From the NCBI GenBank assembly GCA_947630935.1, contig CANRJL010000001.1:1-47372 (forward strand): 47,372 nt of DNA, given 5' to 3'. The first letter of the stretch is position 1. The number at the start of each line of letters is the position of its first letter. The translations under genes and the position numbers were made by a program. The notes under the pieces are model-generated. The model was given only the letters and a program-made list of their open reading frames with translations. It ran no database searches and was not told the origin of the DNA. The DNA comes from an uncultured Bacilli bacterium (GTDB lineage: Bacteria; Bacillota_I; Bacilli_A; RF39; UBA660). Shown here piece after piece: positions 14,504 to 44,071 of the stretch.

Positions 14504-14504
14504 C

Positions 14505-21773: not shown

Positions 21774-21795
21774 AAAAAAGGTAGTTTGCACTACC
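21774..21795 (-). terminator. Intrinsic terminator after the NPQTG surface-protein gene
   Basis: GGTAGT-GCAA-ACTACC on the minus strand followed by T6; it starts 6 nt after the stop. Confidence 0.55.
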
Positions 21796-21800
21796 TATTT

Positions 21801-22496: not shown

Positions 22497-22683
22497 TTTC
22501 TAACCTCTTTCTTCTATTTATATTATGAACTTATTATATCATAAAAATACCTTTTTTCTACTTTTTTTTCAAAATTTTTTGCTTTTTTGTAAATAAATGA
22601 CAATTCCAAAAAAATGCGAATAATTCGTGCAAATTTTAATAAAATATGTTAATATATATAAAGAATAGAAATGTGGTGAAAAA

Positions 22684-24261
22684 ATGAAGAAAATCTTAAT
22701 TCGATTGCAGGCTAATTCTTTATTTTTTTCCTACAAAAAAAATAAACTTGTTCGAGAAGACTTAATGAATACTAATATAATTAGTGATAGTGAACTTATT
22801 TTTTCAGATGATTATATTATTGATAATGCCAATATTGTATTACCTTTTTTTAAAGAATTATGTGAAATGAATCAAATTCAGGTATTAACATTTCAAAATA
22901 AAGAACTTGCTTGTTTTTTATTAAAATATTTTAAAGGTATTAAACAAATTCAAAAAGTACGAATTAAAAAAGAAGAAAATGTTAGTTATGAACTTTGTGA
23001 AGTCTTAGTTGCTCAAAAAACAATTCATGAATTAGAATGTTATTCTATTCCTAGTTATATGTTGGAATATTTAGATAAACATCATATTCATGTAACTACT
23101 TTAAGTGAAGTTTTTTATATTTCACCTTTTATGCAAAGAAATTTTTTAACAGATTATTCACGAATATACTATAAAAAAGAAATTGAAATATTTAGTCCAA
23201 TGAGTGATGAAGATAAGCAAGATTTTCAATCTTTTTTAAGAATTAATCGTTATTTAATTGTTGTAAAATTTCAAATGCTTGACCGAAGTGATTTAGAATT
23301 TGTAATTGAAGAGTTAAAAAGTAATCGTTATCGCGATATTTATATTGAATTATATGAAGATATTCTTGATATGGGAGATATTTTGTATTTAAAAGAATTA
23401 AATAAAAAAAATAAAAAGAAAAAAATTGTTATTGAATTAAATTATTCAAAAGAATATTTACGAAATAATTTAATTAAACAGATTAGTCTAAATACTTTAA
23501 AAGTTTGTGGTTTAATTCTTATTGGTATTGTTGGGGGTTCTTTTGGATATGTTTTGGTGCGCAATTATGTGTCAATGCAAGAAGTTTCCCAAATTCAAGA
23601 AGTGGTCAAAGATAAAATTAAAGATTCCGAAAATTTAGTGATGCCTGATGAAGAAACTGAAGAAGAAGTTGATAATTCTTCAGAGATTAAGAATAAGTAT
23701 ATCTTTGCTTTATCAACTATTAATCCCGATGTTGTTGGCTATTTAAAAGTTAATAATACAAGTGTAGATTATCCAGTAGTTATTTCAAATGATAATGTTT
23801 ATTATTTAAATCATAATTTATATCAACAGTATGACCAAAATGGCTGGATTTATATGGATTTTCGAAATTCAGCTACTTCCTTAAATGATAATACAATTAT
23901 TTATGGTCATAATATGTATTATAGTGGGGTTATGTTTGGAACTTTACATAAAGTCTTAAATGCTAGTTGGCTTAATGACCCGAATAATTTAATTATTTCT
24001 TTTAATACAATGTATGAAACAATGAATTGGCAGATTTTTTCAATTTATACTATTCCTAAAACAAGTGATTATTTAAGAGTTTCTTTTGATACAAAAGAAG
24101 ATAAGTTAAGCTATATTGATATGGTTAAAAAAAGAAGTAAAAAAGATTTTCAAATAGATGTTAATGAAAATGATAAAATGCTTACCCTATCAACTTGTAC
24201 TGGAGATAATTCAAGATTAGTTATTCATGCGAAGCTTTTAGAGACTCAGACATCAGTTTAA
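22684..24261 (+). CDS. srtB: Class B sortase with a ~270-aa N-terminal cytoplasmic extension
   Basis: 525 aa. TM at ~residues 275-295. The C-terminal domain has VDYPVV, TIIYGHNM (His), LTLSTCT (Cys) and RLVIHAKL (Arg), as in SrtB enzymes. Adjacent substrates carry NPKTG/NPQTG. Confidence 0.85.
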   Translation: MKKILIRLQANSLFFSYKKNKLVREDLMNTNIISDSELIFSDDYIIDNANIVLPFFKELCEMNQIQVLTFQNKELACFLLKYFKGIKQIQKVRIKKEENVSYELCEVLVAQKTIHELECYSIPSYMLEYLDKHHIHVTTLSEVFYISPFMQRNFLTDYSRIYYKKEIEIFSPMSDEDKQDFQSFLRINRYLIVVKFQMLDRSDLEFVIEELKSNRYRDIYIELYEDILDMGDILYLKELNKKNKKKKIVIELNYSKEYLRNNLIKQISLNTLKVCGLILIGIVGGSFGYVLVRNYVSMQEVSQIQEVVKDKIKDSENLVMPDEETEEEVDNSSEIKNKYIFALSTINPDVVGYLKVNNTSVDYPVVISNDNVYYLNHNLYQQYDQNGWIYMDFRNSATSLNDNTIIYGHNMYYSGVMFGTLHKVLNASWLNDPNNLIISFNTMYETMNWQIFSIYTIPKTSDYLRVSFDTKEDKLSYIDMVKKRSKKDFQIDVNENDKMLTLSTCTGDNSRLVIHAKLLETQTSV

Positions 24262-25312
24262 GATTACTTTGATATCTTGGAACATTGGGGTTTATTTTAA
24301 GAGCTTTTTTTAAATATTTAATTGCTTCTTTAGGATGACCATTATAAAAATAAATAATACTTACTAAATCATAAAATGAATCATTCCAAGCAAATTCTTC
24401 GTTAATGTAAGATTTGCTTTTTTCTTTTATTTTTAAAGCTTCTTTGATATATTTTAAGGCTTTTGGATAATCTTTTGTTTGATAATAAAAATAGGCTATT
24501 TCAACATAAGGCTCTTTTAAGTATGGAGCTTCATAGATGGCTTTTTGATACCATAATTCAGTCTCAGGTAAATAATTTTTCTTAAAGTAACTTCTTGCTA
24601 TAAAACGCATTGAAGCGCATCGTTCGTCTGGCCAAGTGGCATTGGGACAAGCTAAATGTTTATGTAAAGTAGCAATGCATAAATCATTTTGATTATAAAA
24701 CATGTATTCTCTTCCTAAATAGTGTAAATTTCGGTCATCATTGGGGTCTTCTTTGACACTTAATTCTAAAAGTGGTAAATAATTAGCACGAGATTTGTGG
24801 GTATCTGGATAGTGTTTAATGACAATATCAGTTTCAATATATGTTTCTGGTTCAGAGGTTGTTAAGATTTCATGAACTGGATGAAGCCAAGTATAATTTT
24901 TTAAAGAATGAATTTTATCCTGTCTAAATGTGACTAAAGGAACATCAAATTCATTTAATTTCCAGTGATAAGTATAACGGTATCTGGTGTTATCTTGATG
25001 ATTCCATGCTTTTTCTAATTTTTCGCGCCAACCACTGACAATTACTTCATCTAAATCAAGACTACAACAAATATCTGCATCAGCCGGAAGCATTTTTAAG
25101 GCAAGATTGCGAGCTTCATCAAACCGCCAAGGAGTGATTATTTTTTCTTGGACAATAACTCCCCTTTCTTTTAAAAGTTTGACTGTATTATCAGTTGAAC
25201 CAGTATCTAATACATAAATTTCATCGGCTTCTTTGATTGAATCAAGCCAACGATTTACAAATTGTTCTTCATTTTTACTAATAGCATAGACAATTATTTT
25301 ACATTTTTTCAT
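24221..25312 (-). CDS. Glycosyltransferase family 2-like domain fused to TPR repeats
   Basis: 363 aa with GAGGGAGA RBS. The N-terminus (IIVYAISKNEEQFVNRWLDSI...YVLDTGSTDNT) is GT2-like. The C-terminal ~130 aa have TPR-like A/Y/K periodicity (AIYEAPYLKEPYVEIAYFYYQTKDYPKALKYIKEALKI). Confidence 0.7.
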   Translation of the reverse strand: MKKCKIIVYAISKNEEQFVNRWLDSIKEADEIYVLDTGSTDNTVKLLKERGVIVQEKIITPWRFDEARNLALKMLPADADICCSLDLDEVIVSGWREKLEKAWNHQDNTRYRYTYHWKLNEFDVPLVTFRQDKIHSLKNYTWLHPVHEILTTSEPETYIETDIVIKHYPDTHKSRANYLPLLELSVKEDPNDDRNLHYLGREYMFYNQNDLCIATLHKHLACPNATWPDERCASMRFIARSYFKKNYLPETELWYQKAIYEAPYLKEPYVEIAYFYYQTKDYPKALKYIKEALKIKEKSKSYINEEFAWNDSFYDLVSIIYFYNGHPKEAIKYLKKALKINPNVPRYQSNLKLMSESLKASHE

Positions 25313-25343
25313 ATGTTATTTCTCCCTCTTTGTATTCTATGCC

Positions 25344-25370
25344 AAAAAAAAAGTTTGTCTTATGACAAAC
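25344..25370 (-). terminator. Intrinsic terminator of the Pro-rich membrane protein gene
   Basis: GTTTGTC-ATAA-GACAAAC on the minus strand, overlapping the stop codon, followed by T9. Confidence 0.65.
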
Positions 25371-26847
25371 TACACTTATCACCTAAATTTTCATGGAATG
25401 TAGATATTTCTTGGAATGTTTGAGGCGCTTGTTCTAAGTTAAATTCGGCTTTTAAATCTTCAAGCTTCATTTCGGTTTTTAAAGATAATTTATTATCACT
25501 ATCTTTAAAAGTCGCTACTCCTTTATTGTTATCAATTGTGGAATTTTGATTATATTCTTCTTTGGCTTTTAAGTAGTCTTCAGACCCTTTAAATTGATAA
25601 TCTAATATTTTGTTAATTGAAACAATTTCGTTATTAGCAGATATGCCATATTTATAGCTACTTGTTACTGTAGCAGAGGTTGTTGTTTCTTCTTCAGCAT
25701 TGCTTACGCAATCTAGAACCATTACTGGAGCATTTTCAGTAACAATTAATGAAGCATTTACTTTAGTTTCATGATTTAAATCATCACGAATAGTTAATGG
25801 AATTGTATATTCGCCTTCTTTTTTAACTAATTCTTCTAAAGAAATTGTTTCATCCGCTATTATTATTTCACATTTATCTTCTAAAGATGGGTCTTCACAA
25901 CTAAGAACAAAATCTTCTAAAGATACATTAGTATTTGGAGTTGTGAATACTTCTTTTAATTCTACTTCTGGTCCTAGAGTATCATGAACAGTAATATCTT
26001 TGGTTATTGGTTGTTTTAATGATGGGCAAGTTATTGTATATGAATAATTGCCAGTCTCATTGATATTTATATTCGAAACATCTAAGGTACATGAATTAGC
26101 ATCTATTCCAGTAAAATCAGCAAAATCAGTTATTTTTGAGGAAAGTGTTTTTCCTAATTCCCATTCACTTATTTTAGGAGTTACGATTGTTTGAGGAGTT
26201 TTAGTATTAGCTATATTTAAAAAATAATATACACCCATGCCAATGGATAAGATTAAGATAACAACTAAAATAATGATTATAATCTTTTTAGTATTATCTT
26301 TCTTGTGTGGCTCTTGGACAGGCAAAGGGTTAGAATTTTCTGTAGGTGTGGCAATTCCCCCAAAAGTCGGTGGGTTTGTTTCAATTACATTAATATTATT
26401 ATTTACATTTGGTTGTTCAGATGCAATAGGTTGAGTCTTTTCTTCTGGTTTCTTTATTAATGGTGTATCAGCAGTTAAGGTACTTCCGACTAATGGCTCT
26501 GGAGTTGGGGTTGTTACTTCATTTACGACAACTCCCTCTGGTGCAAGATTTAATTCTTCTACTTGTTCATTAACTGGTTGAAGGTTTTCTAAAACACTTG
26601 GCTGGGAAGTTGGTTGTTCAGGTAAAATAGCAGCTTGCGGTGCTGGTTGGGGTGCCATAGGTGGTATAGGAGGCGTGATAGGTGTTGGTGGAATAGGGTT
26701 AATATTTTCGGATAAAGCTTCTACTTGTGGCGCTGGTTCGTTATTAGGTACAGGTGGTGTTTGGGTTGGTTGTAATGGTTCAACTGGTGGAGTTGAACCT
26801 GCATTTGAATTAGTTTCATTATTTAAATTTAAGTCATCAATATTCAT
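25360..26847 (-). CDS. Bitopic membrane protein: Pro-rich N-terminal region, TM, Ig-like extracellular domains
   Basis: Preferred start is ATG 26847 with GAGGGG 8 nt upstream (ORF-track start 26889 is TTG). About 200 aa rich in P/Q/T/N (PPTPITPPIPPMAPQPAPQ), TM KKIIIIILVVILILSIGMGVYYFL, then beta-rich sequence. Confidence 0.65.
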   Translation of the reverse strand: MNIDDLNLNNETNSNAGSTPPVEPLQPTQTPPVPNNEPAPQVEALSENINPIPPTPITPPIPPMAPQPAPQAAILPEQPTSQPSVLENLQPVNEQVEELNLAPEGVVVNEVTTPTPEPLVGSTLTADTPLIKKPEEKTQPIASEQPNVNNNINVIETNPPTFGGIATPTENSNPLPVQEPHKKDNTKKIIIIILVVILILSIGMGVYYFLNIANTKTPQTIVTPKISEWELGKTLSSKITDFADFTGIDANSCTLDVSNININETGNYSYTITCPSLKQPITKDITVHDTLGPEVELKEVFTTPNTNVSLEDFVLSCEDPSLEDKCEIIIADETISLEELVKKEGEYTIPLTIRDDLNHETKVNASLIVTENAPVMVLDCVSNAEEETTTSATVTSSYKYGISANNEIVSINKILDYQFKGSEDYLKAKEEYNQNSTIDNNKGVATFKDSDNKLSLKTEMKLEDLKAEFNLEQAPQTFQEISTFHENLGDKCSLS

Positions 26848-26939
26848 ACTGATTACCCCTCTTCTATTTTCATAATTAATATTATACAATTATTTTTTTA
26901 AAATAGCAACTATCTTTCTTTATGTGTTAAAGCTTAATT

Positions 26940-26962
26940 AAAAAAACATTGAATATTCAATG
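26940..26962 (-). terminator. Intrinsic terminator at the end of the Tad-like operon
   Basis: 16-nt perfect palindrome CATTGAATATTCAATG directly after the TAG stop, followed by T7 on the minus strand. Confidence 0.55.
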
Positions 26963-28000
26963 CTATTTAAAAATATTAAATAATTTACCATTTTTACTTT
27001 CAATATTTTGAGAGTCAAATCTATCAAAACCCATTTTTATTAAGAGTTCATCAATTTGTGGATAATTATCTAACTTATCATCTAAATATGGTAAATTAAA
27101 ATAAACCTTGCTACTTGATTCATATTCAAAATCAGTAACATCATTTTTATTTAAAACACTTCGATTTAAAATAATTTTTTTACCTTTTAATTTTTCAAAA
27201 ATTTTTTGGTCTCTTCTAATTAATTTATTTAATTTAATTAAACCTGGTTCAATTAAATAAAGAACGTCATTGCAATAATCTTCTTTGCCTTCTTCGTTTA
27301 AATCAATTAATAAAACATCAGCATTATAATTAGATGATATAAATTTTTGGAGTTCAAAATGATTGGTATTTTTTAAGGTACGGTCATTTAAGTAAATAAA
27401 ATCATTTTTATCTACTTCAACAGCAATTACTTTATATTTTTTTTCTAATTCTTTTTTTAACAAGTAAGTAAGAGTTGTACTTCCAGCATGGTCAGTAACA
27501 TTTTTAAGGCCAATAATACGAAGATGTTTTATTGGTTCTTCTTCTCTTTTTTCTTTATCTTTATTTTTCTTAGAATTAGAATGAGAAGCATGTTCTTCTT
27601 CATCATCAGTTATAAAACCACCTAATTGATGATATTGAGCAACATCTTTATAACTATTAGGGTTATCTATTAAAAAGTTAATAGAATCGATATTTCTGGT
27701 AAAATTATAAATTCCCATTGAAACTAATGCTGATAAATATTTGGGACTATTTACAACTTCAGAATCATCTAAAAGAATAATTACTTTACTCATGTCTAAA
27801 TTAACAGATAATTGTTGCATAGTTGTAATATTTTGATAATCTTTAATTGCTGTAATATCTAATATCATTTTGTTATAAAAGAAATTACTAAATTGAGCAA
27901 TTAATTCTTCGGGTGTAAATTCTCCAGATATACTTTTGATAATATCAATATCAAGATTATTTAGTAATGTTTCATATTTATTTACTACTTTTACATTCAT
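26963..28000 (-). CDS. TadZ/CpaE-like protein: receiver-like N-domain + ParA/MinD-like domain with degenerate Walker A
   Basis: 345 aa with AGGAGG RBS. Acidic/basic linker (DDEEEHASHSNSKKNKDKEKREEE). RIIGLKNVTDHAGSTTLTYLL...KVIAVEVD...DVLLIDL...IILNR follows the MinD/ParA strand pattern but lacks the GKT lysine. Confidence 0.5.
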   Translation of the reverse strand: MNVKVVNKYETLLNNLDIDIIKSISGEFTPEELIAQFSNFFYNKMILDITAIKDYQNITTMQQLSVNLDMSKVIILLDDSEVVNSPKYLSALVSMGIYNFTRNIDSINFLIDNPNSYKDVAQYHQLGGFITDDEEEHASHSNSKKNKDKEKREEEPIKHLRIIGLKNVTDHAGSTTLTYLLKKELEKKYKVIAVEVDKNDFIYLNDRTLKNTNHFELQKFISSNYNADVLLIDLNEEGKEDYCNDVLYLIEPGLIKLNKLIRRDQKIFEKLKGKKIILNRSVLNKNDVTDFEYESSSKVYFNLPYLDDKLDNYPQIDELLIKMGFDRFDSQNIESKNGKLFNIFK

Positions 28001-28012
28001 TTTAGTCCTCCT

Positions 28013-28492
28013 TTATTGCCAAGTTAAATCATCTATTGGATTGGTCATTTCTAATGTTGAGCCTTTAATATCAAAGGTAAGTAAATCACCAATTACAGGC
28101 AATTTGAAATTAAAAAATAGTTTTACTTCATATTTAAATTGATTGGCATTAGCACTACTGGATTGTGATTTTTGCTTTTTAATGCAATATAAATATCTTG
28201 TTTTATCATTAGATTCTACATATTTTAATTCTGGACTATTGAGACTTGATACACCATATTCTCCAGTTTTACAAGTATGAACTGTATTATAACTATTATA
28301 TGTTAGATAATTGTTAATGATATTGATACTTGTTTCTTGCACACCTTCATATTTTTCAATTATAGATAGTATTTCATTTTTTAATTTAAATGATTTACTA
28401 TAATTTAAAGATAATGATAAAAATGATGCAAAAATAAGAATAAAAGCTACAACTAAACCTAATAACCATGTAGACCCGATTGATTCTCTCAT
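28013..28492 (-). CDS. Pseudopilin-like (TadE/TadF-like?) protein
   Basis: 159 aa. N-terminus MRESIGSTWLLGLVVAFILIFASFLSL. The start overlaps the upstream stop (ATGA). Confidence 0.55.
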   Translation of the reverse strand: MRESIGSTWLLGLVVAFILIFASFLSLSLNYSKSFKLKNEILSIIEKYEGVQETSINIINNYLTYNSYNTVHTCKTGEYGVSSLNSPELKYVESNDKTRYLYCIKKQKSQSSSANANQFKYEVKLFFNFKLPVIGDLLTFDIKGSTLEMTNPIDDLTWQ

Positions 28493-29031
28493 GAAACTAC
28501 ATCACCTACCATTGTTTTCGTATCTCCTTTAATTTTAAAGTTAAAAATATTATGAAATATTGGCAAATCTAATTGATAAAAGACAATTACTCGATAGTAT
28601 AATACATTAGGAAGTTCATTCATTACACAATTTCCGCCATTACCACAAATTCTATTTTGAATATTTTTATCACTTTCGATTTTAGCAATGCAAAAAGCAG
28701 GATTTTTATCATCTGATTTGCCATTTCTTGAAAAGCCATGATAAGTAACTTTTTCATCATTAATATATTCATCGGTTGGGCATTCTCCTGTAACACGGTA
28801 TGCACTTTCATTTAAATAATTAGCAATTTCACAAATTTCAGTATTATCGTTTGAATTAACACATGATGTTGCCATCTCAATACCATTATAACTTTGAATA
28901 GTTTGAATTATTTTATCTTTTACATTAAATGCTTTGGACTGATTTATTGTAAGGCACATAAAGCCCGCGAAAAGCAAGACAAAAAATATAACTATTTGAA
29001 ATAGAAAACTGCCACCTATTGCTTCTCTCAT
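28489..29031 (-). CDS. Pseudopilin-like (TadE/TadF-like?) protein, Cys-containing
   Basis: 180 aa. N-terminus MREAIGGSFLFQIVIFFVLLFAGFMCL. Contains 8 Cys. Confidence 0.55.
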   Translation of the reverse strand: MREAIGGSFLFQIVIFFVLLFAGFMCLTINQSKAFNVKDKIIQTIQSYNGIEMATSCVNSNDNTEICEIANYLNESAYRVTGECPTDEYINDEKVTYHGFSRNGKSDDKNPAFCIAKIESDKNIQNRICGNGGNCVMNELPNVLYYRVIVFYQLDLPIFHNIFNFKIKGDTKTMVGDVVS

Positions 29032-29049
29032 CAGGCTACTCCTTTCTTT

Positions 29050-29313
29050 TTATCCTTTCCAAGGGCATTCAAATGTATTTTGGGTACTAGAGCAACTTTT
29101 TTGCTCACCATTTTGCTCAGTAGGCATACAACATTTTACGGTAATACAATTTCCAGAACTACATTTTTCACATACAGCTTGAGAGCATTTAGTATTTTCA
29201 TCCATATTTTGACGAATTAAAGGCCAAATAGTAAAATAGAAAAAGGCTGACAAAGCCCCTATTCCAATAACTATTGCTACTGTAATATTTAATTCGCCTG
29301 TTGCCTCTTTCAT
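29050..29313 (-). CDS. Pilin-like protein 2 (Flp-sized hydrophobic N-terminus + Cys-rich tail)
   Basis: 87 aa with perfect AGGAGG RBS. MKEATGELNITVAIVIGIGALSAFFYFTIWPLIRQ is followed by a 45-aa tail with 8 Cys. Confidence 0.65.
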   Translation of the reverse strand: MKEATGELNITVAIVIGIGALSAFFYFTIWPLIRQNMDENTKCSQAVCEKCSSGNCITVKCCMPTEQNGEQKSCSSTQNTFECPWKG

Positions 29314-29331
29314 TTATTCCTCCTAATATTA

Positions 29332-29598
29332 TTATGGATTTGGGTTTTCTGGTGAGCTTTCATCTTTGTATGTGCAAGAAAAAGTCTCAGATTCTCCAGG
29401 TATTGAACAGCCTGTACAAGTTCTCGTACCTCCTACGCCTTCATCACAATTCGTACATTGAGCAGCAGCACATTTTGTATTGTTTGTAATAGAATTTCTT
29501 ACAGTTGGCCAGACAAATGCATAGAAGAATGCAGCTACAGCAGCTATTGCTACTACAGTGATAACAGTCATATTTAATTCACCTGTTGCTTCTTTCAT
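29332..29598 (-). CDS. Pilin-like protein 1 (paralogue of 29050..29313)
   Basis: 88 aa with perfect AGGAGG RBS. MKEATGELNMTVITVVAIAAVAAFFYAFVWPTVRN is followed by a tail with 6 Cys. Confidence 0.65.
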   Translation of the reverse strand: MKEATGELNMTVITVVAIAAVAAFFYAFVWPTVRNSITNNTKCAAAQCTNCDEGVGGTRTCTGCSIPGESETFSCTYKDESSPENPNP

Positions 29599-29675
29599 AA
29601 TATTCCTCCTAACTCTATATATAATTTTATTATATCTTTTTTTGCTTTTTTTATCAATAAATTTTTATTTGTTTA

Positions 29676-30464
29676 CTATACATTTAACATCATTAATAAG
29701 GCAAAGACTAGAAGAACCATTACTCCTACTCCTGTAGCTACAAGCATTTGCATTGTTTTCTTTTCCATTTTTTCTAATCGCTCTTTATATTTTAATTCCC
29801 GAGCCTTTTGTTGAAGATTAGAAATTGTTCTAGAAAACGCTAATAATTGTTCTTGCTTATGTTCTTGTCTTCCCAAAGATAAACGATATAAAAGACGCAT
29901 CATTCGCATTGAATCACGAACTGGGTAGGTTTTAGCAAAATTTATGTAAGGGTTTATAGTATTATCGCCGGAATTAATTTCGTTAATTAATTCTTGTAAA
30001 CCTTCTTTAAAAATTGGGGGAGCATCTTCAATAGACTTTCCTAAAGCTACAGGAACTGTATAATGTTGAATTAAGATTTCTAAGCTTTTTAAATAGTAAG
30101 GTAACATTGAATCAATATCATGTAAATGACGACGATAGTATTTTTTTAAATTACTATAGTCCATTTTAAAAACTAAATAACCAATTATTATTGAGAATAA
30201 AACGGTGATGTAAGAAATGTTTGAGATAAAGAAACATAATAGAACAACGATAATAATTAAGCCTCTTTTGACTCTTTTATTAAATAGAAAATCTGGGTTT
30301 ACTGAGTCACCATATCTTGCTCTTACATAAAAGTCCCAATCACTTTCTTTTAACTTTTGAAAATAAACTTCATTATCTGATACAAAACGATTGACACTGA
30401 TACGTCCGGTATAATTTAAAGCAAAGAATAAAATCAAGGCTAAAGCTATTATTTCAAAATACAT
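29676..30464 (-). CDS. TadC-like (T2SS F-family) membrane protein
   Basis: 262 aa. N-terminal TM, paired central TMs, a helical cytoplasmic domain and a C-terminal TM. The start overlaps the upstream stop (TAATG). Sits directly after the TadB-like gene. Confidence 0.6.
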   Translation of the reverse strand: MYFEIIALALILFFALNYTGRISVNRFVSDNEVYFQKLKESDWDFYVRARYGDSVNPDFLFNKRVKRGLIIIVVLLCFFISNISYITVLFSIIIGYLVFKMDYSNLKKYYRRHLHDIDSMLPYYLKSLEILIQHYTVPVALGKSIEDAPPIFKEGLQELINEINSGDNTINPYINFAKTYPVRDSMRMMRLLYRLSLGRQEHKQEQLLAFSRTISNLQQKARELKYKERLEKMEKKTMQMLVATGVGVMVLLVFALLMMLNV

Positions 30465-31360
30465 TATTCCACCCCCACATCTTCATAATAAAACCTTTCT
30501 CCTTTATATAAGAAGAAACAGTTTATCCAAATAATGGCATGGAGAATAAATTGAACATACCACATATCTAATAGTTTTAAATATGAAGCAGTGCCCAATA
30601 AAAATTGCATAGCCATAACTAATAAGAATAATGCTAGACCAAAAGTAACAAATCTTTTATGAAAATCAGCTCGGTCTATTTGGTCCCGATAAACTCCTTC
30701 AACTAGTGAGTCGATGTCCATTGATAAATTTTCTAATGCTTCACCAGAGTCTTTAGCGCCTTCTTTAGTTATTTGTAAAAATAATTGATTCATATTTTTA
30801 ACCATATAATAAGGATATTTTTTATTAAAGAAATCAATTGATTCATCGATAGTACCATTTTGATAAGACATATTTATCATGGTTTTAACATCTTCTAAAA
30901 CAGGGTTTTCTAAAATGCCAGAATCTCTTACTCCTTCAAGAGATTTAACAAAACTTTGCGTTGTTGTAAATTCCATAATGACATTGGTTGTATATGTCTG
31001 AATTTGTTCAAAAATAAATTCGGAATAAGCTTTTTGGCAGCGAAGATAAGCTAAAAAAGGAATAAATAAAACTGCTATAACTGCATATATAATAGCAACA
31101 ATTATATTGTAAAAATATAAATAAGATATAACTCCGGCAAAACCTGCAAATAAAATAACTTGGGTTATATATTGCCGAGGAGTATATTCTTGACCTAATT
31201 CTTTTACTTTTTCTCTTACTTTGACAAAACTATAATTGGAATATTTATTATAAGCATTGTTAATGCTTGTTGCAAAAAACTTATAAACATTTTCCCCATT
31301 ATTCAGATAATAGGATACAGCAAAAATGGCCAAAGCTAATAATAATATAAGTTCAATCAT
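30464..31360 (-). CDS. TadB-like (T2SS F-family) membrane protein
   Basis: 298 aa. The topology (N-terminal TM, two central TMs, soluble helical domain, two C-terminal TMs) and the position after the ATPase fit TadB/TadC. Confidence 0.6.
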   Translation of the reverse strand: MIELILLLALAIFAVSYYLNNGENVYKFFATSINNAYNKYSNYSFVKVREKVKELGQEYTPRQYITQVILFAGFAGVISYLYFYNIIVAIIYAVIAVLFIPFLAYLRCQKAYSEFIFEQIQTYTTNVIMEFTTTQSFVKSLEGVRDSGILENPVLEDVKTMINMSYQNGTIDESIDFFNKKYPYYMVKNMNQLFLQITKEGAKDSGEALENLSMDIDSLVEGVYRDQIDRADFHKRFVTFGLALFLLVMAMQFLLGTASYLKLLDMWYVQFILHAIIWINCFFLYKGERFYYEDVGVE

Positions 31361-31375: not shown

Positions 31376-32479
31376 CTATAGAGTTTCTATAGCGCTTTTT
31401 TGAGGTGATTCATTTACTTTATCTTCACCTTGATAAATATCATCTGGCAAAGTTATACCCGAAATGGCTAAATAATCTTTTAAATGTTTAGTTGGGTTGT
31501 TCATGGTTATTTCGCCTGTAAGAGTTTTTTGAAAGATGGTATTAACTTGGGCTTTATTATTTTCATCAACATAAAATTCACATATTTCCATAATTTCTCT
31601 TTGAAATCTGCCTAATTCTTTACTCATGTATCCTTTAACATATATTCCTATTTGAACATAACGATGGATAGTTGATAGAAACTGGTCAACATCAATATTA
31701 CTTTCTATAAGGGCAAACATTCGCAATGGAATTAAACTGGCTTTGTCAGAGTGAATAGTTGATAAAATATGATGCCCTGATGATATACTATTTCTAACAG
31801 CCATGACAGCTTCAGCGCTTCGCACTTCGGAAAGTAAAATCCAGATTGGGTTTTGCCGCATACAGGTTACTAAAACATCGGTATAACTGGCAATATTATT
31901 TGTTTTCATAGCAATTATATCACGATGAGGAAAAATGCGGTCTAGATGAAGCTCTAAGGTATCTTCAATGGTAATTATTTTTTCGTTTTCTTTAGTATGT
32001 GCGGCTAAATATTTGACAAGCTCAGTTTTTCCTGAACCTGTTTCCCCACTTACGATAATATTAGCATGACCTTCGACACATTTTAATAAAAAATCAAGTA
32101 GACTTGCCGAAACATATTTTTCGTTTAATAATTTTTCACGATTTAATCTTATTTTGGATGGTGTTTTACGAATTTGGCACGCAATACCATTCGTAGCAAT
32201 TGAATCGTGGATAAAGTTTAAACGAAGTTCTGCACTTTCAGCATCCAAAAAAGGATGAGCCATATTAAATGTTTTTCCCATAACATTAGCACATTGAAAT
32301 GCTAATTTTTCTAAAAGTGCATTATTTATTTCTGGCCTTTCTACTTGATAAACTCCTTTTGTAAGGGATTTTAACCAAACCTGTCCATTATTGTCATATG
32401 AGATATCAGTAATATCTTCGTCTCTTAGAAATTCTTCAATAGGTCCAAAATCTAATTGTGAAAATATTGCATCATTCAT
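31376..32479 (-). CDS. tadA: TadA/CpaF-family secretion ATPase (T2SSE/VirB11 superfamily)
   Basis: 367 aa. ITDISYDNNGQVWL, RLNFIH...IRK, Walker A SGETGSGKTE, ITIEDTLEL, Walker B-like IWILLSEVRSAEA and His box SGHHILSTIHS. Confidence 0.85.
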   Translation of the reverse strand: MNDAIFSQLDFGPIEEFLRDEDITDISYDNNGQVWLKSLTKGVYQVERPEINNALLEKLAFQCANVMGKTFNMAHPFLDAESAELRLNFIHDSIATNGIACQIRKTPSKIRLNREKLLNEKYVSASLLDFLLKCVEGHANIIVSGETGSGKTELVKYLAAHTKENEKIITIEDTLELHLDRIFPHRDIIAMKTNNIASYTDVLVTCMRQNPIWILLSEVRSAEAVMAVRNSISSGHHILSTIHSDKASLIPLRMFALIESNIDVDQFLSTIHRYVQIGIYVKGYMSKELGRFQREIMEICEFYVDENNKAQVNTIFQKTLTGEITMNNPTKHLKDYLAISGITLPDDIYQGEDKVNESPQKSAIETL

Positions 32480-32511: not shown

Positions 32512-33366
32512 TTAATTATTTGAATTGTTATTATTATTGTTGTTATTATTGTTATTGTTATTTGTATTACTATTTGTTCCTGTTGAAATTTGTTCATCAG
32601 GGATAACAGCAGCTTTAGATAGAATAAATTCTCTTACATAAGCACTGGCAACTTCTGTTTCGCCAGGATTTGCCGTATAATTTTTATTTCTTGGAACAGG
32701 AATTATATCTATTCCCGTATATTGAGCTTTACGTAATAAAGAATACATATCATCTGGTACAGCAAATAGTAATGATGCTGGGGTTCTACTTTCAGTTGAT
32801 GTTTCAAATACTGATTGTCCAGAACCATCACGAACATCTAAAACCCGAATACTCCGGATTAAATTAGTGTATATTAATTTATTATAATTGTCATTACCTT
32901 TAACCCATAAATCAATATAGTTTCCTGGGAAAATAGAATTTCCGTAAGTTGTATGAATATCTACTCCTAATTCAAATAGTGTATAACCATCTGGAATATC
33001 AGCAATTACATTATCAGGTTGACTTTCAGGAGAAACAATTGCTGATGTATAGAAAAAACTATTTTGAGGAATGGTTGTTCCATACATTACTTCTTTACCT
33101 ATTAATTGATTAGCATTTCTTATCATATTATTACTTTTACTTAATACAGCATTAGATACTTCCATATATCCTATATCATCAGCCGTAATAACGTGTCTTG
33201 ATGATAAAGCGTTTTTAGCATAAGGAATAGTTGTAGGATTGGTTGCTGTATTAACTCGCCAAGTATATCCTATATATAATACTAAGATTCCAGCTATGAC
33301 ACATATAATGGTTACAGTATTTTTGTTACTCAAAAATTTTTTAATTCTTGTTATTAAATTTCCCAT
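32512..33366 (-). CDS. CpaB/RcpC-like (SAF-domain) pilus assembly protein with a poly-Asn tail
   Basis: 284 aa. N-terminal TM (VTIICVIAGILVLYIGY), then a SAF-like segment (RHVITADDIGYMEVS...LIGKEVMYGTTIPQNSFF). The C-terminus is NSNTNNNNNNNNNNNNNSNN. Confidence 0.55.
   Translation of the reverse strand: MGNLITRIKKFLSNKNTVTIICVIAGILVLYIGYTWRVNTATNPTTIPYAKNALSSRHVITADDIGYMEVSNAVLSKSNNMIRNANQLIGKEVMYGTTIPQNSFFYTSAIVSPESQPDNVIADIPDGYTLFELGVDIHTTYGNSIFPGNYIDLWVKGNDNYNKLIYTNLIRSIRVLDVRDGSGQSVFETSTESRTPASLLFAVPDDMYSLLRKAQYTGIDIIPVPRNKNYTANPGETEVASAYVREFILSKAAVIPDEQISTGTNSNTNNNNNNNNNNNNNSNN
32515..32574 (-). repeat. (AAT/AAC)n low-complexity tract encoding poly-Asn
   Basis: Read directly: ATT/GTT triplets on the plus strand immediately above the stop codon. 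Confidence 0.9.
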
Positions 33367-33384: not shown

Positions 33385-33786
33385 CTAATTTCCTAATTCT
33401 AAAATAGAATCTACACGATTAACTATATCAAAAGATTCGGAATTAGAACTTATTTGATAAGTGTTGCTTTTAGTAGTAACTTGGACACCAGCTTTTGGTG
33501 GTGATTCATATATTTCGTAAAAGTCAATTTGATAAGTATTTAGATTAGCACTTTCAGCAAATCTTCTTAAAAAATTTTCAACATATTTTTCACGATTAAT
33601 ACGTAATTCACCACTTTCTCTGTAGTAGCCATAGTCGACAGCATCGACCATAGCTGCTTCAGATACTTCTTTAATTAAATAATAATCTTGGGTACTGGTT
33701 GTAGATACATTGGAAACTAACATCATGATAACTATGATAAATACGCCTAATGCAATTAACCAATATCCCCAATAGCTTTCTTTCAT
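33385..33786 (-). CDS. Pseudopilin-like small protein
   Basis: 133 aa. N-terminus MKESYWGYWLIALGVFIIVIMMLVS shares the M[KR]E[AS] start and single N-terminal helix with the four other subunit-like genes. Confidence 0.5.
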   Translation of the reverse strand: MKESYWGYWLIALGVFIIVIMMLVSNVSTTSTQDYYLIKEVSEAAMVDAVDYGYYRESGELRINREKYVENFLRRFAESANLNTYQIDFYEIYESPPKAGVQVTTKSNTYQISSNSESFDIVNRVDSILELGN

Positions 33787-33796: not shown

Positions 33797-36700
33797 CTAT
33801 TTCCATGAAGGACCGACGCCAGTAACTCTATCTAAGCAAACGCCGCCTTGACAGTAATTTGTATTAGTCCATAAAACAAAATCTTCATTACGTTTATTTT
33901 CGGTGAAATAGTCATTTTCTTCACCAATATCTAAGAATCTTGATTTACAATTAACGCTGTAATCAACACCATTAATTGTATGATTTTCACAATAGATAGC
34001 ATCTTCACCACTTGCACTTAAACTACTAATAGTTGGAATTGCTGTGTTAGAATAACTGCCTGCTGCTTTGTTATATTTTCGCAAATTTATCATATTTTGT
34101 CTAGTTAAAGTATATGAATATTCAGATTGTGTATAAGCATATTCACCAGTTTCTTCAATTTCATTTCTGGTAACTTCAGCCTTTTTACTTGCATCAGTCG
34201 TATTTCCACTCGCTTGAGTTTGACCACTATTTTGACCTTCTGTTGAAGTTTGGCCTCCTGATTGACTAGTTGTTTTACCGCCATTTGATAAATTCCAGTT
34301 ATATCCAGTTTGGCGACAATTTTCAGTATTGCCATCTTTGCATTCATTTGGGAATAAATTGCCAGTTGTAACAGAACGGAAGACAGCTTTTGACGTTAAT
34401 TCATCATTATCTTCAATTTCATCTGATCCATCAACTATACATGTAGGACAATCTTTTTTAGAATCATTTGTAATATCACAAGAACCACCTTCACATGTTA
34501 CATGGCATGTTGGACAGTTGTTAATGTAATGACAAACATAACCACCATCAATACTTGTTGGAGTTGTAGTACCACATTTATTTTCTTCTGGTAAATTACT
34601 ATATGCTTCGATAACGCTTTTTACCTCTTCTGATTTGCCATCTTCGGCAGCATCATTAATTAATCTTCCTAACTCGCCATTGGTATTATTTTGACCAATA
34701 TTTTTAAAGTAGAATTTAAATTGGAACACTCCTTTATGTTGTCTTAATGATACTGGAAGTGAACTATCAGGAAGTCTTGTCCATAAGCAATCTTTATAGA
34801 CACCATTAGAATCTTGAATACATTGTTCAGCATTTACTTTAATTGCTCCATATTGAGTATAAGTAGAAAATTGGCCTCGTGGTACATAAACACCGGTGTT
34901 AGTTACTGTTTTTTGAACTCTTTGAACTGTATATCTTGTTTTATTTTCTAACTTACAAGTAGCATCATTACAACTTACTATTTGTTCAGTTGTTGTTAAA
35001 TTTTCTTTCATCTGTTCATCATTATAACTTTGACCAGTACATTTATATTCATCATTTACGTCCGTTCCACAATAAACATTTTTGGAATCAGTAGTTTTAC
35101 TTTTTTCGCTAAATGCTGGTAAATTGTCTTCTTTTTTAGTAACTATATCATTGTAGGCATTATCAACAGTTTTTTCATCATTATTATCTTCACCATAAGT
35201 ATATTTAATTATAGGATCAAATTTCATATCATTTGTCCATTCTGTACATTGCTTGTAGCTATTTTGAACATTTTCTAAAGCTTGTTTAGCATTATTATAT
35301 GTCTTTTCAGCATCATCTTTTTTAGCTGTAAATGTTGATTTTACACCATTAAATGTTGATGTTACTTTAGCTTCAGTCAATTTATTCTCTTCATCTGGTT
35401 TATAAATATACCATACATATTGAGCTTGGAATTCATCGCTAGCTCCTTCAGCAACAGTTTCTGGAGCACTTTCTTCGGCTTTTTTATATTTAATATATTC
35501 ATTGAAAGCATTTATTAAATTTTGTTGAGCAGTTTTAACATCTTTCAAATATTTAGTTTCATCAATACCTTTAGATGGATCAGTTGCTCCACTAATATAG
35601 CAATTTCGGGTGCCTTTTATAGTAGTTTCTAATTCGAAGTAACCACCACTTTGCGAATATTTAGCTGTTGGAACTGTAAAATTATATTCTTCATCACACC
35701 AAACTTTGCAATAAGGATTACCTTTAAAAATGCTTGTTGCTTCAAATGAATTATTCATTTGATCTGTATGGTCAATTACACATTTTTTTACTTGATTTGC
35801 ACTAGAATTACATTCTGTTGGTGTTCGATTTATGTCGCTTATTGTTCCCGAAACAGTAGATTCTGCATCAAAATCATTACATGTCGATGGAAGAGTTACA
35901 TTGGCAAAACAGTTAGTACAATATGTCTTGTAATCTTCACATGAAGAGCTATCGCCCTCTTTACATTCTTTTTCATATTTGCCACATTCACATTCTGTTT
36001 TATATTGTTCTTCACTAGCACATTCTTCACCATTAGAGCAAATATAATGTTTAACATCATCAATTTCTTCAATACTGCATTCTTTTGTACATTCTGCTAA
36101 ATATGTTGCTTCATTATCGTCTTCTTCACTTTCAGGATCTGGTCCATAGAATGTTGTTACACCATTTTTAGTAACTTTTTGGCAAGTTTTTTTACATTGA
36201 TTTAAATATGTTTTTTTAGTTGTAACTTTACCTTCTTTATCATAATATGTGCCATTATCTTCCCGACAGCCACATTGTTTAGTAAATTCTTCAGCATTTG
36301 CTAATTTGCTACCATCATTGCCATAATAAACACCATCAACAATTTCGCATTTATGATTTTCATCTTCTTGGCAAAGATCTGGAGAACAATGATAATTTTT
36401 TTCAAAAGTAGAAGCATTTTTATCATCTAAATACATTTTTTCAGTTGTTGTTTTGCCTGTAGGTTCATCATTTACTTTTTCTACTCTAGTTACTTCGTAA
36501 TAGTATTTACCTTGATTGTCTTTTTTACATTCACATGTGTCATTATCCCATACTAAATCTAAATCTGATAAATAGATATCATCTGAACCATAATTACGAA
36601 GAAGTAATTGATTTTGTAAGCTATAATTACGGTCACCATTGGAATTTATAGGGCCATAATAGGCAACGTTTGCCTGAGCTGAATGCTTATCACTCCAAGC

Positions 36701-37645
36701 TGTTTTTAAAGTTATTCCATATGCTTTGTTGTTTTTTTGAGCTTCTTTAAACTTGCCATCTTCCGTATTAACATGAATTATAAATTCAGCTTTTTTGCCA
36801 TTTTCACTTACTGTTATTAGTTTTTTATCATTTTCTTTTCTGATATTACATTTATAACCATATTCACAACTTACTGTAAAATCATCCCAATATACTTTTT
36901 CAATATTGCTAGCATTTTTAATTTCAATTGTAAGGATTTCACTATGGTCATTTTCATGTTCTACTTTTTTGATTTTTGTTTCCCATTTAGCATCCCAAAT
37001 GATTCCACTATCAACTAATGAATTATAGATTTCTTTAGCACTTTTACCTTTATTAGCATCACTATTTACAGAATTTCCAGCCTCAATAGCTTTTTGATAT
37101 ATTTCTTTTAAAAATTTAGTATCATTTTGCCAACTAGGCCAATAATTTGAATTTGTAAATAAGGTATCTTTTCGATAAGGTGCAACAGCATTTTGATCAC
37201 CACCAGTATCAAGTTTACCATAATATCCTTCAATTAATCTAAATAATGCTGTGCCTAATTTAACGCTTGTATTTGAACCTTTGCCTGCGCCAATTCCGGC
37301 GTCAATTAATTCTTGATAGCCAACCGTTAAAGCGACATCTAAGTCCTGTTTATTAGATTCCTGTGGATGAAGCGTTCTAATACATTTACTATTACTACCA
37401 GAATTATGACTTTTTCCAGGAGCCATGCAAAATAATTTACCGACTATGCCACCATTTACATAAGCATTATAATTATGAATTTCATGTTTACCTGCTGCAT
37501 AAAAGGCACCACCAGTAAGTGATACTCTAACTAACTCATATGGGCAAGTATAAACATTTAAATCAATTGTTGTTGCTTTGACTGGCAAAACTTGAAAAAA
37601 TGTTAAGATGCATACAAATGCAATTGTTTCTAATATCTTTTTCAT
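33797..37645 (-). CDS. Very large secreted Cys-rich protein (candidate adhesin or filament-associated protein)
   Basis: 1282 aa with AGGGGGA RBS. Sec signal MKKILETIAFVCILTFFQVLPVKA. Many Cys throughout (count not tallied), in C-x-C, CxxC and CPTC contexts. Residues ~371-556 carry YY-x-x-x-G modules like those in the sortase substrates. No cell-wall sorting signal or C-terminal TM. Confidence 0.8.
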   Translation of the reverse strand: MKKILETIAFVCILTFFQVLPVKATTIDLNVYTCPYELVRVSLTGGAFYAAGKHEIHNYNAYVNGGIVGKLFCMAPGKSHNSGSNSKCIRTLHPQESNKQDLDVALTVGYQELIDAGIGAGKGSNTSVKLGTALFRLIEGYYGKLDTGGDQNAVAPYRKDTLFTNSNYWPSWQNDTKFLKEIYQKAIEAGNSVNSDANKGKSAKEIYNSLVDSGIIWDAKWETKIKKVEHENDHSEILTIEIKNASNIEKVYWDDFTVSCEYGYKCNIRKENDKKLITVSENGKKAEFIIHVNTEDGKFKEAQKNNKAYGITLKTAWSDKHSAQANVAYYGPINSNGDRNYSLQNQLLLRNYGSDDIYLSDLDLVWDNDTCECKKDNQGKYYYEVTRVEKVNDEPTGKTTTEKMYLDDKNASTFEKNYHCSPDLCQEDENHKCEIVDGVYYGNDGSKLANAEEFTKQCGCREDNGTYYDKEGKVTTKKTYLNQCKKTCQKVTKNGVTTFYGPDPESEEDDNEATYLAECTKECSIEEIDDVKHYICSNGEECASEEQYKTECECGKYEKECKEGDSSSCEDYKTYCTNCFANVTLPSTCNDFDAESTVSGTISDINRTPTECNSSANQVKKCVIDHTDQMNNSFEATSIFKGNPYCKVWCDEEYNFTVPTAKYSQSGGYFELETTIKGTRNCYISGATDPSKGIDETKYLKDVKTAQQNLINAFNEYIKYKKAEESAPETVAEGASDEFQAQYVWYIYKPDEENKLTEAKVTSTFNGVKSTFTAKKDDAEKTYNNAKQALENVQNSYKQCTEWTNDMKFDPIIKYTYGEDNNDEKTVDNAYNDIVTKKEDNLPAFSEKSKTTDSKNVYCGTDVNDEYKCTGQSYNDEQMKENLTTTEQIVSCNDATCKLENKTRYTVQRVQKTVTNTGVYVPRGQFSTYTQYGAIKVNAEQCIQDSNGVYKDCLWTRLPDSSLPVSLRQHKGVFQFKFYFKNIGQNNTNGELGRLINDAAEDGKSEEVKSVIEAYSNLPEENKCGTTTPTSIDGGYVCHYINNCPTCHVTCEGGSCDITNDSKKDCPTCIVDGSDEIEDNDELTSKAVFRSVTTGNLFPNECKDGNTENCRQTGYNWNLSNGGKTTSQSGGQTSTEGQNSGQTQASGNTTDASKKAEVTRNEIEETGEYAYTQSEYSYTLTRQNMINLRKYNKAAGSYSNTAIPTISSLSASGEDAIYCENHTINGVDYSVNCKSRFLDIGEENDYFTENKRNEDFVLWTNTNYCQGGVCLDRVTGVGPSWK

Positions 37646-37661: not shown

Positions 37662-38378
37662 CTAAATCTTCCTCTTTTTATTTCTTTTTATTTGAACAAT
37701 GATAGCAATCATCATTATTACTATAAGAACGGTGCCACCGATATACCAGTAAATTCTATTTTTAGATGCTAATTCTTCAGCTCCTTTAAAATAATTGTTA
37801 TTGCTATTTACATATTCATTTTGAATTTTTTCTTCATCTACTTCAATGTTTGTTGTAACATATTTTTCACAATAATATGCATCTTTATTTTCGCAAAGGG
37901 CTTGGTCAGCTAATTCATTATACATTGGAGTCAATACTTTTATTTCTCTTAATTCTTCATTAGAACATCCGGAAACATCGGAAAAAATTTTGATAGTATA
38001 AGTTCTTATCTTTTGAGTATCAGGAACTCTTAAAGAAAAACTACCATTAACTAAATCTCTAGCGTGATACTCTTCATCAATATGTTCTTCTTCATTTGTA
38101 ATTCGAAAATAAATTTGATCAGTTATATTGTATATTTTAACATTAAAATGTTCAGCAAAGTAATAACCACTATTCAAGGTATTAGCTATTTCATCAGATA
38201 CTTCTGGATGGGGATTACCTTCATAATCTTCTTTTACTCGTTCCATTTCATAAGTGCCTACGACATTAGCCGCAGCTGTACTGATTTCATTTTGTGTTTT
38301 ATAATCACATTCAGCATGTACTGTTTGGCTTAACAACGCACACATAGCAATTAAAAAAATTAACCCTTTTTTTCGCAT
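37662..38378 (-). CDS. Type I membrane protein, first gene of the Tad-like block
   Basis: Preferred start is ATG 38378 (MRKKGLIFLIAMCALLSQTVHA signal); ORF-track start 38438 is TTG. C-terminal TM YWYIGGTVLIVIMMIAIIV plus a KRNKKRK tail. Confidence 0.65.
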   Translation of the reverse strand: MRKKGLIFLIAMCALLSQTVHAECDYKTQNEISTAAANVVGTYEMERVKEDYEGNPHPEVSDEIANTLNSGYYFAEHFNVKIYNITDQIYFRITNEEEHIDEEYHARDLVNGSFSLRVPDTQKIRTYTIKIFSDVSGCSNEELREIKVLTPMYNELADQALCENKDAYYCEKYVTTNIEVDEEKIQNEYVNSNNNYFKGAEELASKNRIYWYIGGTVLIVIMMIAIIVQIKRNKKRKI

Positions 38379-38532
38379 AATTATTCCATCCAATCTAAAA
38401 TATATAAGTATTGTATCAAAATATCTTTTGTTTTTCAATCATTTTATACTTTTTCTATTTTATTAATTTCTACTATTCAAAAATGCTTCTTTATGATATA
38501 TTTTTAATTAGAAAAATAGATTGGAGTTATAT

Positions 38533-44051: not shown

Positions 44052-44071
44052 ATTTTCACCTAAAAAAGTAT

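Follow-up and report, generated by a model that had tools for sequence, protein, structure and literature searches.

Two small tandem genes, here called pil1 and pil2, lie on a 47,372-nucleotide stretch of DNA from an uncultured Bacilli bacterium (contig CANRJL010000001.1 of assembly GCA_947630935.1; this whole stretch is referred to below as the window) and probably encode the structural subunits of a divergent, Tad/archaeal-like type IV filament machine that is specified by a conserved locus of 12 genes. We favor this reading because of the leaders shared among several products of the locus, the CpaF-type ATPase and the CpaB-like protein encoded alongside, the synteny of related loci, a predicted lollipop-like fold, the parity of Cys numbers, the promoter ahead of pil1, and homology to a module of conjugative plasmids. 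A preliminary description, made from the letters of the sequence, had already proposed that the two genes encode paralogous pilin-like proteins, a major and a minor subunit, whose Cys-rich C-terminal tails form disulfide-knotted or metal-binding knobs or link the subunits covalently.

The tandem pilin-like genes and their family

29332..29598, minus strand: pil1, 88 amino acids; leader MKEATG, hydrophobic helix 10-31, invariant W30-P31, 6 Cys
29050..29313, minus strand: pil2, 87 amino acids; leader and helix as in pil1, 8 Cys, C-terminus CPWKG
29629..29657, minus strand: sigma-70-type promoter, TTGATA-17 nt-TATAAT, in the 77-nt gap upstream of pil1; 11 of 12 matches

Both open reading frames were recovered on the minus strand where the preliminary description had placed them, together with the shared elements MKEATGELN[MI]TV, FFY, WP, and NTKC to which it had drawn attention. 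The two proteins are 46 % identical and hence paralogues, each consisting of the leader MKEATGELN, a 22-residue hydrophobic stretch, and a Cys-rich tail, and their genes, separated by a spacer of 18 nucleotides (nt), are both preceded by a perfect AGGAGG ribosome-binding site. The Cys counts given earlier, six for pil1 (positions 43, 48, 51, 61, 64, and 75) and eight for pil2, likewise proved correct and amount to 6.8 % and 9.2 % of the residues, respectively, as compared to 0.5-1.5 % in most other proteins of the window. Eight Cys, however, are not typical, being confined to the window and one relative, with six or four representing the norm of the family.

It had also been suggested to search for homologues with this tail, and such a search indeed uncovered a large family. 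Homologues of pil1 form 2,145 clusters (90 % identity) at E≤0.01, and a profile search of 1.84 billion representative proteins returned 649 clusters (50 % identity) at E≤0.001, the best 150 of which comprise proteins of 43-142 amino acids. Not one of the 2,145 cluster-level homologues has an informative name or a Pfam domain, the family as a whole is covered by no model of Pfam or NCBIfam, and literature searches yielded no description of it. Among 84 related loci, two pilin genes are present in 67, one in 15, and three in two. Since 2,145 and 649 clusters match and the tandem recurs in 67 of the 84 loci, the similarity of the pil1 and pil2 sequences is not due to chance. In two-gene loci, [WYF]KG is the C-terminus of the second product in 54 of 58 cases and never that of the first; as the second gene thus forms a separate orthologue group, the duplication is old and maintained.

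The sigma-70-type promoter represents the best promoter-like site within positions 26700-30000, and sites with at least 11 of 12 matches precede the pilin genes in 45 of 61 related loci. Among the promoters listed, hexamers and spacing are mostly identical, the -10 element ends 25-44 nt from the ATG, and this conservation persists although the pilins of those loci are only 50-60 % identical. A dedicated strong promoter is what would be expected for the gene of a major subunit. The division into major and minor subunits put forward earlier is plausible in view of both this promoter ahead of the first gene and the distinct orthologue group formed by the second: pil1 is likely the major subunit, and pil2 is a candidate second subunit that may be minor or co-major.

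In a scan of one genome per species, the family was found in at least 388 species. Its carriers are almost exclusively uncultured gut organisms listed as 'Bacilli bacterium', 'Tenericutes', 'Mycoplasma sp. CAG:776', 'Clostridium sp. CAG:628', or metagenome-assembled genomes of Erysipelotrichaceae, and the two named Candidatus genera among them are Bacilli incertae sedis. The locus is also present in a metagenome-assembled genome named for [Clostridium] spiroforme, which we take to be a cultured species.

Leader, Cys-rich tail, and predicted fold

A start of the form M[KR]E[AS]x(1-3)G ahead of a hydrophobic helix is common to five proteins, namely pil1, pil2, and three larger products of the locus that are introduced below (pp180, pp159, and a DUF5411 protein), whereas it occurs in no other open reading frame of the window; these leaders are conserved across species. 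In pil1 and pil2, the six-residue leader MKEATG ends in Gly and is followed by 22 hydrophobic residues, which corresponds to the class III signal-peptide pattern. The architecture typical of pilins, that is, a long N-terminal helix capped by a β-sheet head (the 'lollipop'), is seen in the AlphaFold2 prediction only: the model of pil1, computed with 121 homologues, comprises a helix (residues 10-45) and three strands (50-53, 58-65, and 73-78) at a predicted local distance difference test score (pLDDT) of 81.7.

The view that these proteins are not Flp pilins, as stated in the preliminary description, is corroborated by several observations. Neither pil1 nor pil2 matches Flp_Fap at E≤0.1, and this model is absent from the 25 families most often matched by the 121 homologues at E≤1. 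Moreover, the G/xxxxEY motif is lacking, as the near-invariant sequence MKEATG/ELNMTV has Glu at +1 and no Tyr at +6. Unlike Flp pilins, the proteins furthermore possess a tail of ~45 residues with a predicted three-stranded sheet and 4-8 conserved Cys. Instead, weak similarity exists to archaeal Pilin_N (PF07790), the sole pilin model with recurrent matches (66 of 121 members, best E 0.0068, all below the gathering cut-off of 25.2 bits), which align from Gly6 to its cleavage-site and helix region.

The most telling feature of the tail is the parity of its Cys residues. Their number is even in 370 of 378 unique family members (binomial p against 50:50 ~1e-98), with four Cys in 122, six in 239, and eight in two members, and most of the few odd-numbered members that were inspected resemble frameshifted tails. 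The first Cys occupies position 43 in nearly all spacing patterns listed, and Cys columns are lost in pairs. Between residues 1 and 31, the mean pairwise identity is 92 %, as opposed to 27 % for the tail outside the Cys columns, which is rich in Thr, Ser, and Asn and contains only 0.2 % His. Even Cys counts also characterize the ectodomains of the larger leader-bearing proteins, which have only two Cys in many species. Because of Cys parity, the predicted sheet, the hypervariable tail with fixed Cys, their paired loss, and the scarcity of His, we favor a small surface-exposed head held together by intramolecular disulfides. Which Cys would pair with which is ambiguous from the co-loss of columns, since two different 4-Cys patterns exist in the family. 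The earlier suggestion of knobs is thus supported as far as a Cys-stabilized knob is concerned. Metal binding or intermolecular bonds are possible, metal binding being less likely than disulfides given that Cys numbers change in twos, that Cx1C...Cx1C occurs in some members, and that His is nearly absent.

Metal would also be central to a rather different scenario, according to which pil1 and pil2 are uncleaved membrane proteins of N-out/C-in topology with cytoplasmic Zn- or Fe-binding tails that serve as accessory or regulatory factors of the ATPase complex. The acidic flank before and the basic flank after the helix would favor a C-in orientation, a common type of spacing, Cx4-CxxC-x8-CxxC, resembles a zinc ribbon, and weak matches to RING, Fer2, and FeoB-associated Cys-rich models were obtained (a search of PDB sequences with the pilin profile gave nothing significant, only RING-finger matches at chance level). 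We nonetheless consider this scenario very improbable. The spacing is variable, with CxxC missing or replaced by Cx1C in many members, Cys numbers proceed in steps of two (4, 6, 8), and the His content and the hypervariable, Thr/Ser/Asn-rich nature of the tail described above point away from a cytoplasmic metal site, as do the larger leader-bearing paralogues with just two Cys in many species and a neighboring Sec-secreted protein that is equally Cys-rich.

The other proposal in the preliminary description, covalent cross-linking of subunits as in Bacillus Ena fibers, is best regarded as a variant of the filament reading, in which intermolecular disulfides would yield a particularly robust fiber. 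An even number of Cys would suit head-to-tail cross-links with two Cys per subunit equally well, and the host, a spore former, has further envelope proteins that are very rich in Cys (a CotZ-like protein and one with 114 Cys, see below). However, no relation to Ena was found, neither as a Pfam match of that kind nor as a likeness of the predicted folds, and the N-terminus of the pil proteins is a Cys-free membrane helix. In addition, the compact predicted β-hairpin would allow the Cys to pair across strands inside one subunit, symmetric spacings including Cx1C...Cx1C suit an intramolecular ladder, and the domain is retained while its Cys number shifts by twos. Overall, this variant appears improbable to us.

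Conservation at the N-terminus, variability in the Cys-rich C-terminal part, and the presence of tandem paralogues are also reminiscent of Cys-rich ribosomal peptides (bacteriocins or ribosomally synthesized and post-translationally modified peptides) with a conserved leader and a variable core, and a weak C39-like peptidase is encoded downstream in one related locus. What is conserved here, however, is a membrane helix of 22 residues, the locus contains no conserved gene for a modification enzyme, for immunity, or for a dedicated exporter, and the linkage of the family to the pilin-like operon pp180-pp159-g345 is strict. On the grounds of architecture and context, we consider such precursors scarcely conceivable and rejected them, as we did a VirB2-like interpretation of pil1 and pil2.

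A possible partner of Cys-rich proteins was noticed in relatives. In five loci (L011:1381-1839, minus strand, and four others), the locus is adjoined by a gene for a membrane-anchored thioredoxin-fold protein with a CANC motif, which matches thioredoxin and the PedC/BrcD disulfide isomerase family below threshold and is, by this similarity, a candidate extracytoplasmic oxidoreductase for Cys-rich proteins. An equivalent is not encoded in the window.

The conserved locus and its conjugative relatives

The genes pil1 and pil2 form part of a conserved block of 12 genes, all tightly packed on the minus strand, next to which a protease gene lies in divergent orientation. The further genes are, in the order of transcription and ending with the protease gene:

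37662..38438, minus strand: g258, first gene of the conserved block; signal peptide and C-terminal membrane anchor
33797..37645, minus strand: g1282, secreted protein of 1,282 amino acids with 52 Cys; signal peptide
33385..33786, minus strand: DUF5411 protein, leader MKESYWG and hydrophobic helix, third minor-pilin-like protein; Pfam DUF5411 4.7e-56
32512..33366, minus strand: CpaB/RcpC-like protein, N-terminal anchor and poly-Asn tail; Pfam RcpC 7e-6, TIGR03177 7e-8
31376..32479, minus strand: assembly ATPase of the CpaF/FlaI/VirB11 clade; Pfam T2SSE 1.2e-24
30464..31360, minus strand: mem298, polytopic membrane protein, candidate platform subunit
29676..30464, minus strand: mem262, polytopic membrane protein, candidate platform subunit, homologous to pLS20 gene 39
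28489..29031, minus strand: pp180, 180 amino acids, minor-pilin-like; leader MREAIGG and hydrophobic helix, 6 ectodomain Cys
28013..28492, minus strand: pp159, 159 amino acids, minor-pilin-like; leader MRESIG and hydrophobic helix, 2 Cys
26963..28000, minus strand: g345, conserved cytoplasmic protein of 345 amino acids
38521..39249, plus strand: Rce1-like CPBP intramembrane protease, divergent; Pfam Rce1-like 1.6e-13

This gene order recurs in related loci across species. All 71 loci with more than 3 kb of downstream sequence have pp180, pp159, and g345 after the pilin genes, and the ATPase block lies upstream of them in 48 of the 60 loci that could be evaluated (those with more than 7 kb upstream). 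The link between the pilin-like genes and an ATPase machinery, as assumed in the preliminary description, is hence borne out by synteny.

With regard to the individual components, the ATPase matches CpaF (2e-17), FlaI (5e-17), and VirB11 (2e-16) about equally well among PDB sequences. The RcpC and TIGR03177 matches of the CpaB-like protein are both under the curated cut-offs; its C-terminus consists of a run of ~15 Asn (NSNTNNNNNNNNNNNNSNN). By size and position, mem298 and mem262 would suit the role of platform proteins of the GspF/PilC/TadB-TadC type. The former has 7,216 homologues without a Pfam domain and an all-helical AlphaFold2 model of low confidence (pLDDT 62); it has no match among PDB sequences, nor did Foldseek find one in the PDB at E≤0.001 with this low-confidence model. 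For mem262, there is no Pfam or PDB match, and the comparison of the two by hhalign remained at noise level, like the cross-controls. Orthologues of pp180 have two, four, or six ectodomain Cys. A weak CbiA/ParA match (E 0.0045) in only 3 of 24 orthologues suggests that g345, which has no PDB sequence match, is possibly a degenerate ParA/TadZ-like partner.

Relatives of this machinery were found on conjugative plasmids. The closest plasmid-borne ATPases, 31-34 % identical, are those of Enterococcus faecium pZB18 (locus L085, NC_016967.1), of Bacillus subtilis plasmids of the pLS20 family (L086, the pLS20-type pNARUSE), and of a Paraclostridium plasmid (L087), with alignments to the plasmid homologues at 31 % identity spanning 91-94 % of the length. 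In the plasmid operons, a large adhesin is followed by an anchored protein of ~125 amino acids, the ATPase, two membrane proteins, an anchored protein of 120 amino acids, tiny hydrophobic proteins of 47-50 amino acids, VirD4, and VirB6-, VirB3-, and VirB4-type proteins (the former two being VirB6-like and VirB3-like). The tiny proteins (MLDQN[AT]DR...) occur in tandem in two of the three, the pLS20-type and Paraclostridium plasmids. Comparison of mem262 with the p39 family by hhalign gave a probability of 93.5 % and an E value of 2.4e-7, and pLS20 p36 and its pZB18 counterpart match DUF5411 at 1.4e-5 and 0.006, respectively. The best, albeit weak, plasmid match of pp159 is its positional counterpart, the 120-amino-acid protein of pZB18 (E 0.063). 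Comparison of mem298 with the p38 family remained at noise level, and pil1 and pil2 show no similarity to p41. As judged by these sequence comparisons, mem262, the ATPase, and the DUF5411 protein are homologous to, and arranged in the same order as, genes of pLS20/pZB18-type operons, and the module of the locus shares ancestry with genes 36-39 of these conjugative plasmids. The large secreted protein g1282, which has no Pfam or NCBIfam match, is a candidate adhesin, as it takes the same position as the plasmid adhesins (Tie and an SpaA-like adhesin).

Of the 45 related chromosomal loci whose downstream sequence is long enough, ~21 carry a type IV secretion module after g345. It encodes, as seen at L011:12636-18664 and in 20 other loci, two VirB2-like small proteins, a VirB6-like protein of 866 amino acids, a VirB3-like protein, and VirB4, and is closest to the families of Mycoplasma integrative and conjugative elements (VirB4_plasma, 3e-103); VirD4 occurs in L001 and L045. 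In the window, neither VirB4 nor VirB6 nor VirD4 was detected.

These neighborhoods bear on another scenario, in which the product of the machine is no more than a short pseudopilus of the kind known from type II secretion or Com systems, with pil1 and pil2 as pseudopilins that push g1282, DNA, or the channel of a type IV secretion system through the thick cell wall. It draws on the VirB4/VirB6/VirB3/VirB2-like module directly after ~21 of the 45 loci, on VirD4 in others, and on the homologous plasmid module inside conjugation operons of systems for which no pili have been reported. Indeed, Gram-positive conjugative elements are stated to form no pili (PMC8557374; PMC11730352). The window, however, has kept the whole module yet lacks VirB4, VirB6, and VirD4, and a strong dedicated promoter combined with a hypervariable head is typical of an abundant exposed filament subunit. 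We therefore regard a pseudopilus as rather unlikely.

The gene for the CPBP protease is a recurrent neighbor, adjoining the locus in 11 of 19 evaluable loci and also in L003. In L057, L059, and L069, the Rce1-like gene stands directly beside the pilin operon at a site from which the machinery genes are absent, and in L081 an open reading frame of 841 codons lies between the two. Among the plasmids, a CPBP gene precedes the pZB18 module (L085:5641-6087), and none is found in the pLS20-type or Paraclostridium modules; as it is thus present in only one of three plasmid modules, the link is weak. A functional connection to the locus, for example in leader processing, is speculative. A bolder version of the filament reading would dispense with an A24 peptidase altogether: the leader would either be cut by the adjacent CPBP protease or kept, and the structure would represent the missing pilus of a group of Gram-positive conjugation systems (those of pLS20 and pZB18 and type IV secretion systems like those of Mycoplasma integrative and conjugative elements), domesticated on the chromosome in gut Bacilli and furnished with disulfide-laddered heads. 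We deem this combination distinctly unlikely, and Cys clusters that bind metal on an extracellular filament would be an even more remote possibility.

Apart from the locus, the window is, by its gene content, ordinary chromosome of a low-GC spore former, with genes for UvrB, CorA, a D-Ala-D-Ala carboxypeptidase, two Gate-domain membrane proteins, an FtsW/SpoVE-family protein, and a CotZ-like coat protein. The carboxypeptidase and the two Gate-domain genes (41903-44114, minus strand) can be read as dacB-spmA-spmB and are adjoined by the gene for the CotZ-like spore coat protein (40165-40587, minus strand), which has 16 Cys in 140 amino acids. By these sequences, the host forms spores and possesses several envelope proteins rich in Cys. 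A second surface-structure cluster (4216-15170, minus strand) resembles SipW/TasA-type fiber systems and encodes a protein of 1,279 amino acids with 114 Cys (8.9 %) and a filamin-type repeat, an S26/S24 signal-peptidase-like protein of 374 amino acids, a DUF5305 protein, and two proteins of ~220 amino acids, one with a weak camelysin (M73) match. The region 20562-24261 contains the gene for a sortase of 525 amino acids (plus strand) beside that for a 231-amino-acid protein with a weak LPXTG anchor match, as well as a secreted protein of 385 amino acids with 15 Cys; in L003 and L004, too, a sortase gene comes after the locus. The conserved block is followed immediately downstream (24221-26889, minus strand) by genes for a 509-amino-acid protein with a weak match to the mobile-element protein CD1107 and for a GT2 glycosyltransferase with tetratricopeptide repeats, and related loci show no conservation of either. 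This glycosyltransferase might modify the pilin tails with their many Thr and Ser residues, although nothing supports this.

Proposed filament and comparison with known systems

From topology and cleavage after Gly6 through disulfides to filament formation and function, we infer the following course of events. Both pil1 and pil2 would be inserted into the membrane with the MKEATG N-terminus in the cytoplasm and the Cys-rich tail outside. A peptidase encoded outside the locus would then remove the leader, probably by cleavage after Gly6, and the subunits would be extracted from the membrane by the CpaF-like ATPase together with the two polytopic proteins; these components are present, and their action is conjectured. 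Stacking of the near-invariant hydrophobic helices would produce a thin filament, coated by heads of ~35 residues with three predicted strands and, as Cys parity suggests, two to four intramolecular disulfides, and these heads would be free to vary. The three further proteins with this leader, pp180, pp159, and the DUF5411 protein, likely serve as subunits for priming or at the tip, and g1282 is a likely adhesin. In this genome, the structure likely serves adhesion or cell-cell contact, and in those relatives and plasmids where the module stands beside a type IV secretion system, it may, by analogy, mediate mating-pair contact.

Several observations weigh against a filament of this kind. The +5 Glu of type IV pilins is absent, the invariant Glu being located at +1 (Glu7) and Thr at +5, and a motif search for an A24-type prepilin peptidase (GxGD) found none in the window or within 10 kb of the 84 related loci. 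The leader has no net positive charge and a basic flank follows the helix, so that the positive-inside rule does not favor a tail-out orientation; the charge pattern of B. subtilis ComGC is similar. No similarity to GspF, TadB, or TadC was detected in mem298 and mem262 (Pfam and PDB sequences, for mem298 also Foldseek), and the pil1 model has no Foldseek match in the PDB at E≤0.001. As for the disulfides, the hosts are gut anaerobes, and the window encodes no disulfide-forming enzyme. Finally, the pilin operon (pil1 through g345) stands apart from the ATPase genes in 12 of 60 loci (L013, L014, L023, L024, L043, L051, L057, L059, L060, L069, L077, and L081), from which it follows that the two transcription units are separable.

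The family, large and unnamed, occurs in hundreds of species of uncultured gut Bacilli and is hence probably one of the principal surface structures in a little-understood fraction of the gut microbiota. It would widen the spectrum of type IV filament pilins by proteins whose leader follows a different logic, whose locus encodes no peptidase, and whose head would carry several disulfides, all this in strict anaerobes. To our knowledge, the phylum of these hosts usually avoids exported Cys. Homology to pLS20 genes 36-39 furthermore provides a testable hypothesis for genes that are given as unknown (pLS20 genes 36 and 38-41; PMC8557374) in systems said to have no pilus, and a link to the open question of VirB11-associated genes in pLS20-type plasmids is credible. 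Experiments appear feasible, as pLS20 is genetically tractable and the locus is carried by the genome named for [Clostridium] spiroforme.

Among known systems, Tad/Flp pili (type IVc, for example, Caulobacter CpaF-PilA and Aggregatibacter Flp1) have in common with the locus a single CpaF-type ATPase, a CpaB/RcpC-like protein, small pilins, two separate membrane proteins of ~260-300 amino acids in the position of TadB and TadC, several larger pseudopilin-like proteins with the same leader, and possibly a ParA-like partner. In contrast, pil1 and pil2 lack an Flp_Fap match and G/xxxxEY and bear a disulfide-type β head that Flp pilins do not have; no TadV was found at the locus, and its membrane proteins are not recognizable as T2SSF. 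Archaeal type IV pilins (PF07790) are resembled in the recurrent Pilin_N matches and in the ATPase, which scores equally against FlaI and CpaF; those matches, however, are all sub-gathering, the organisms considered here are bacteria, and the head domain is unrelated. Pilins of the B. subtilis ComGC type likewise belong to monoderms, are short, and have a short leader that is roughly neutral in charge. The head of ComGC is stabilized by an intramolecular disulfide, for which BdbDC is required. Differences lie in the missing N_methyl/ComGC match, in Glu at +1 rather than +5, in four to eight instead of two Cys, and in an ATPase that belongs to the CpaF/FlaI clade and not to ComGA.

Divergent systems have also been predicted in other gut Firmicutes, namely a Tad-like operon with DUF5411 in Roseburia, Ruminococcus, and Eubacterium (PMC9523054) and a TANB77 pilus cluster with a fused TadBC protein and pilin-like proteins of 143-621 amino acids (PMC11680825). 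Small Cys-rich pilins are undescribed in either study, whereas the divergent CpaF-centered operons with unannotated pilin-like genes are a feature of both and DUF5411 is common to the first. In the pLS20, pZB18, and Paraclostridium plasmids (pLS20 genes 34-41), the module is embedded in a conjugation operon without CpaB and g345, and the tiny proteins of 47-50 amino acids lack a Cys-rich head and do not detectably resemble pil1 and pil2. What unites these plasmids with the locus is the ATPase at 31-34 % identity, the correspondence of mem262 to p39 and of the DUF5411 protein to p36, and the order of the genes.

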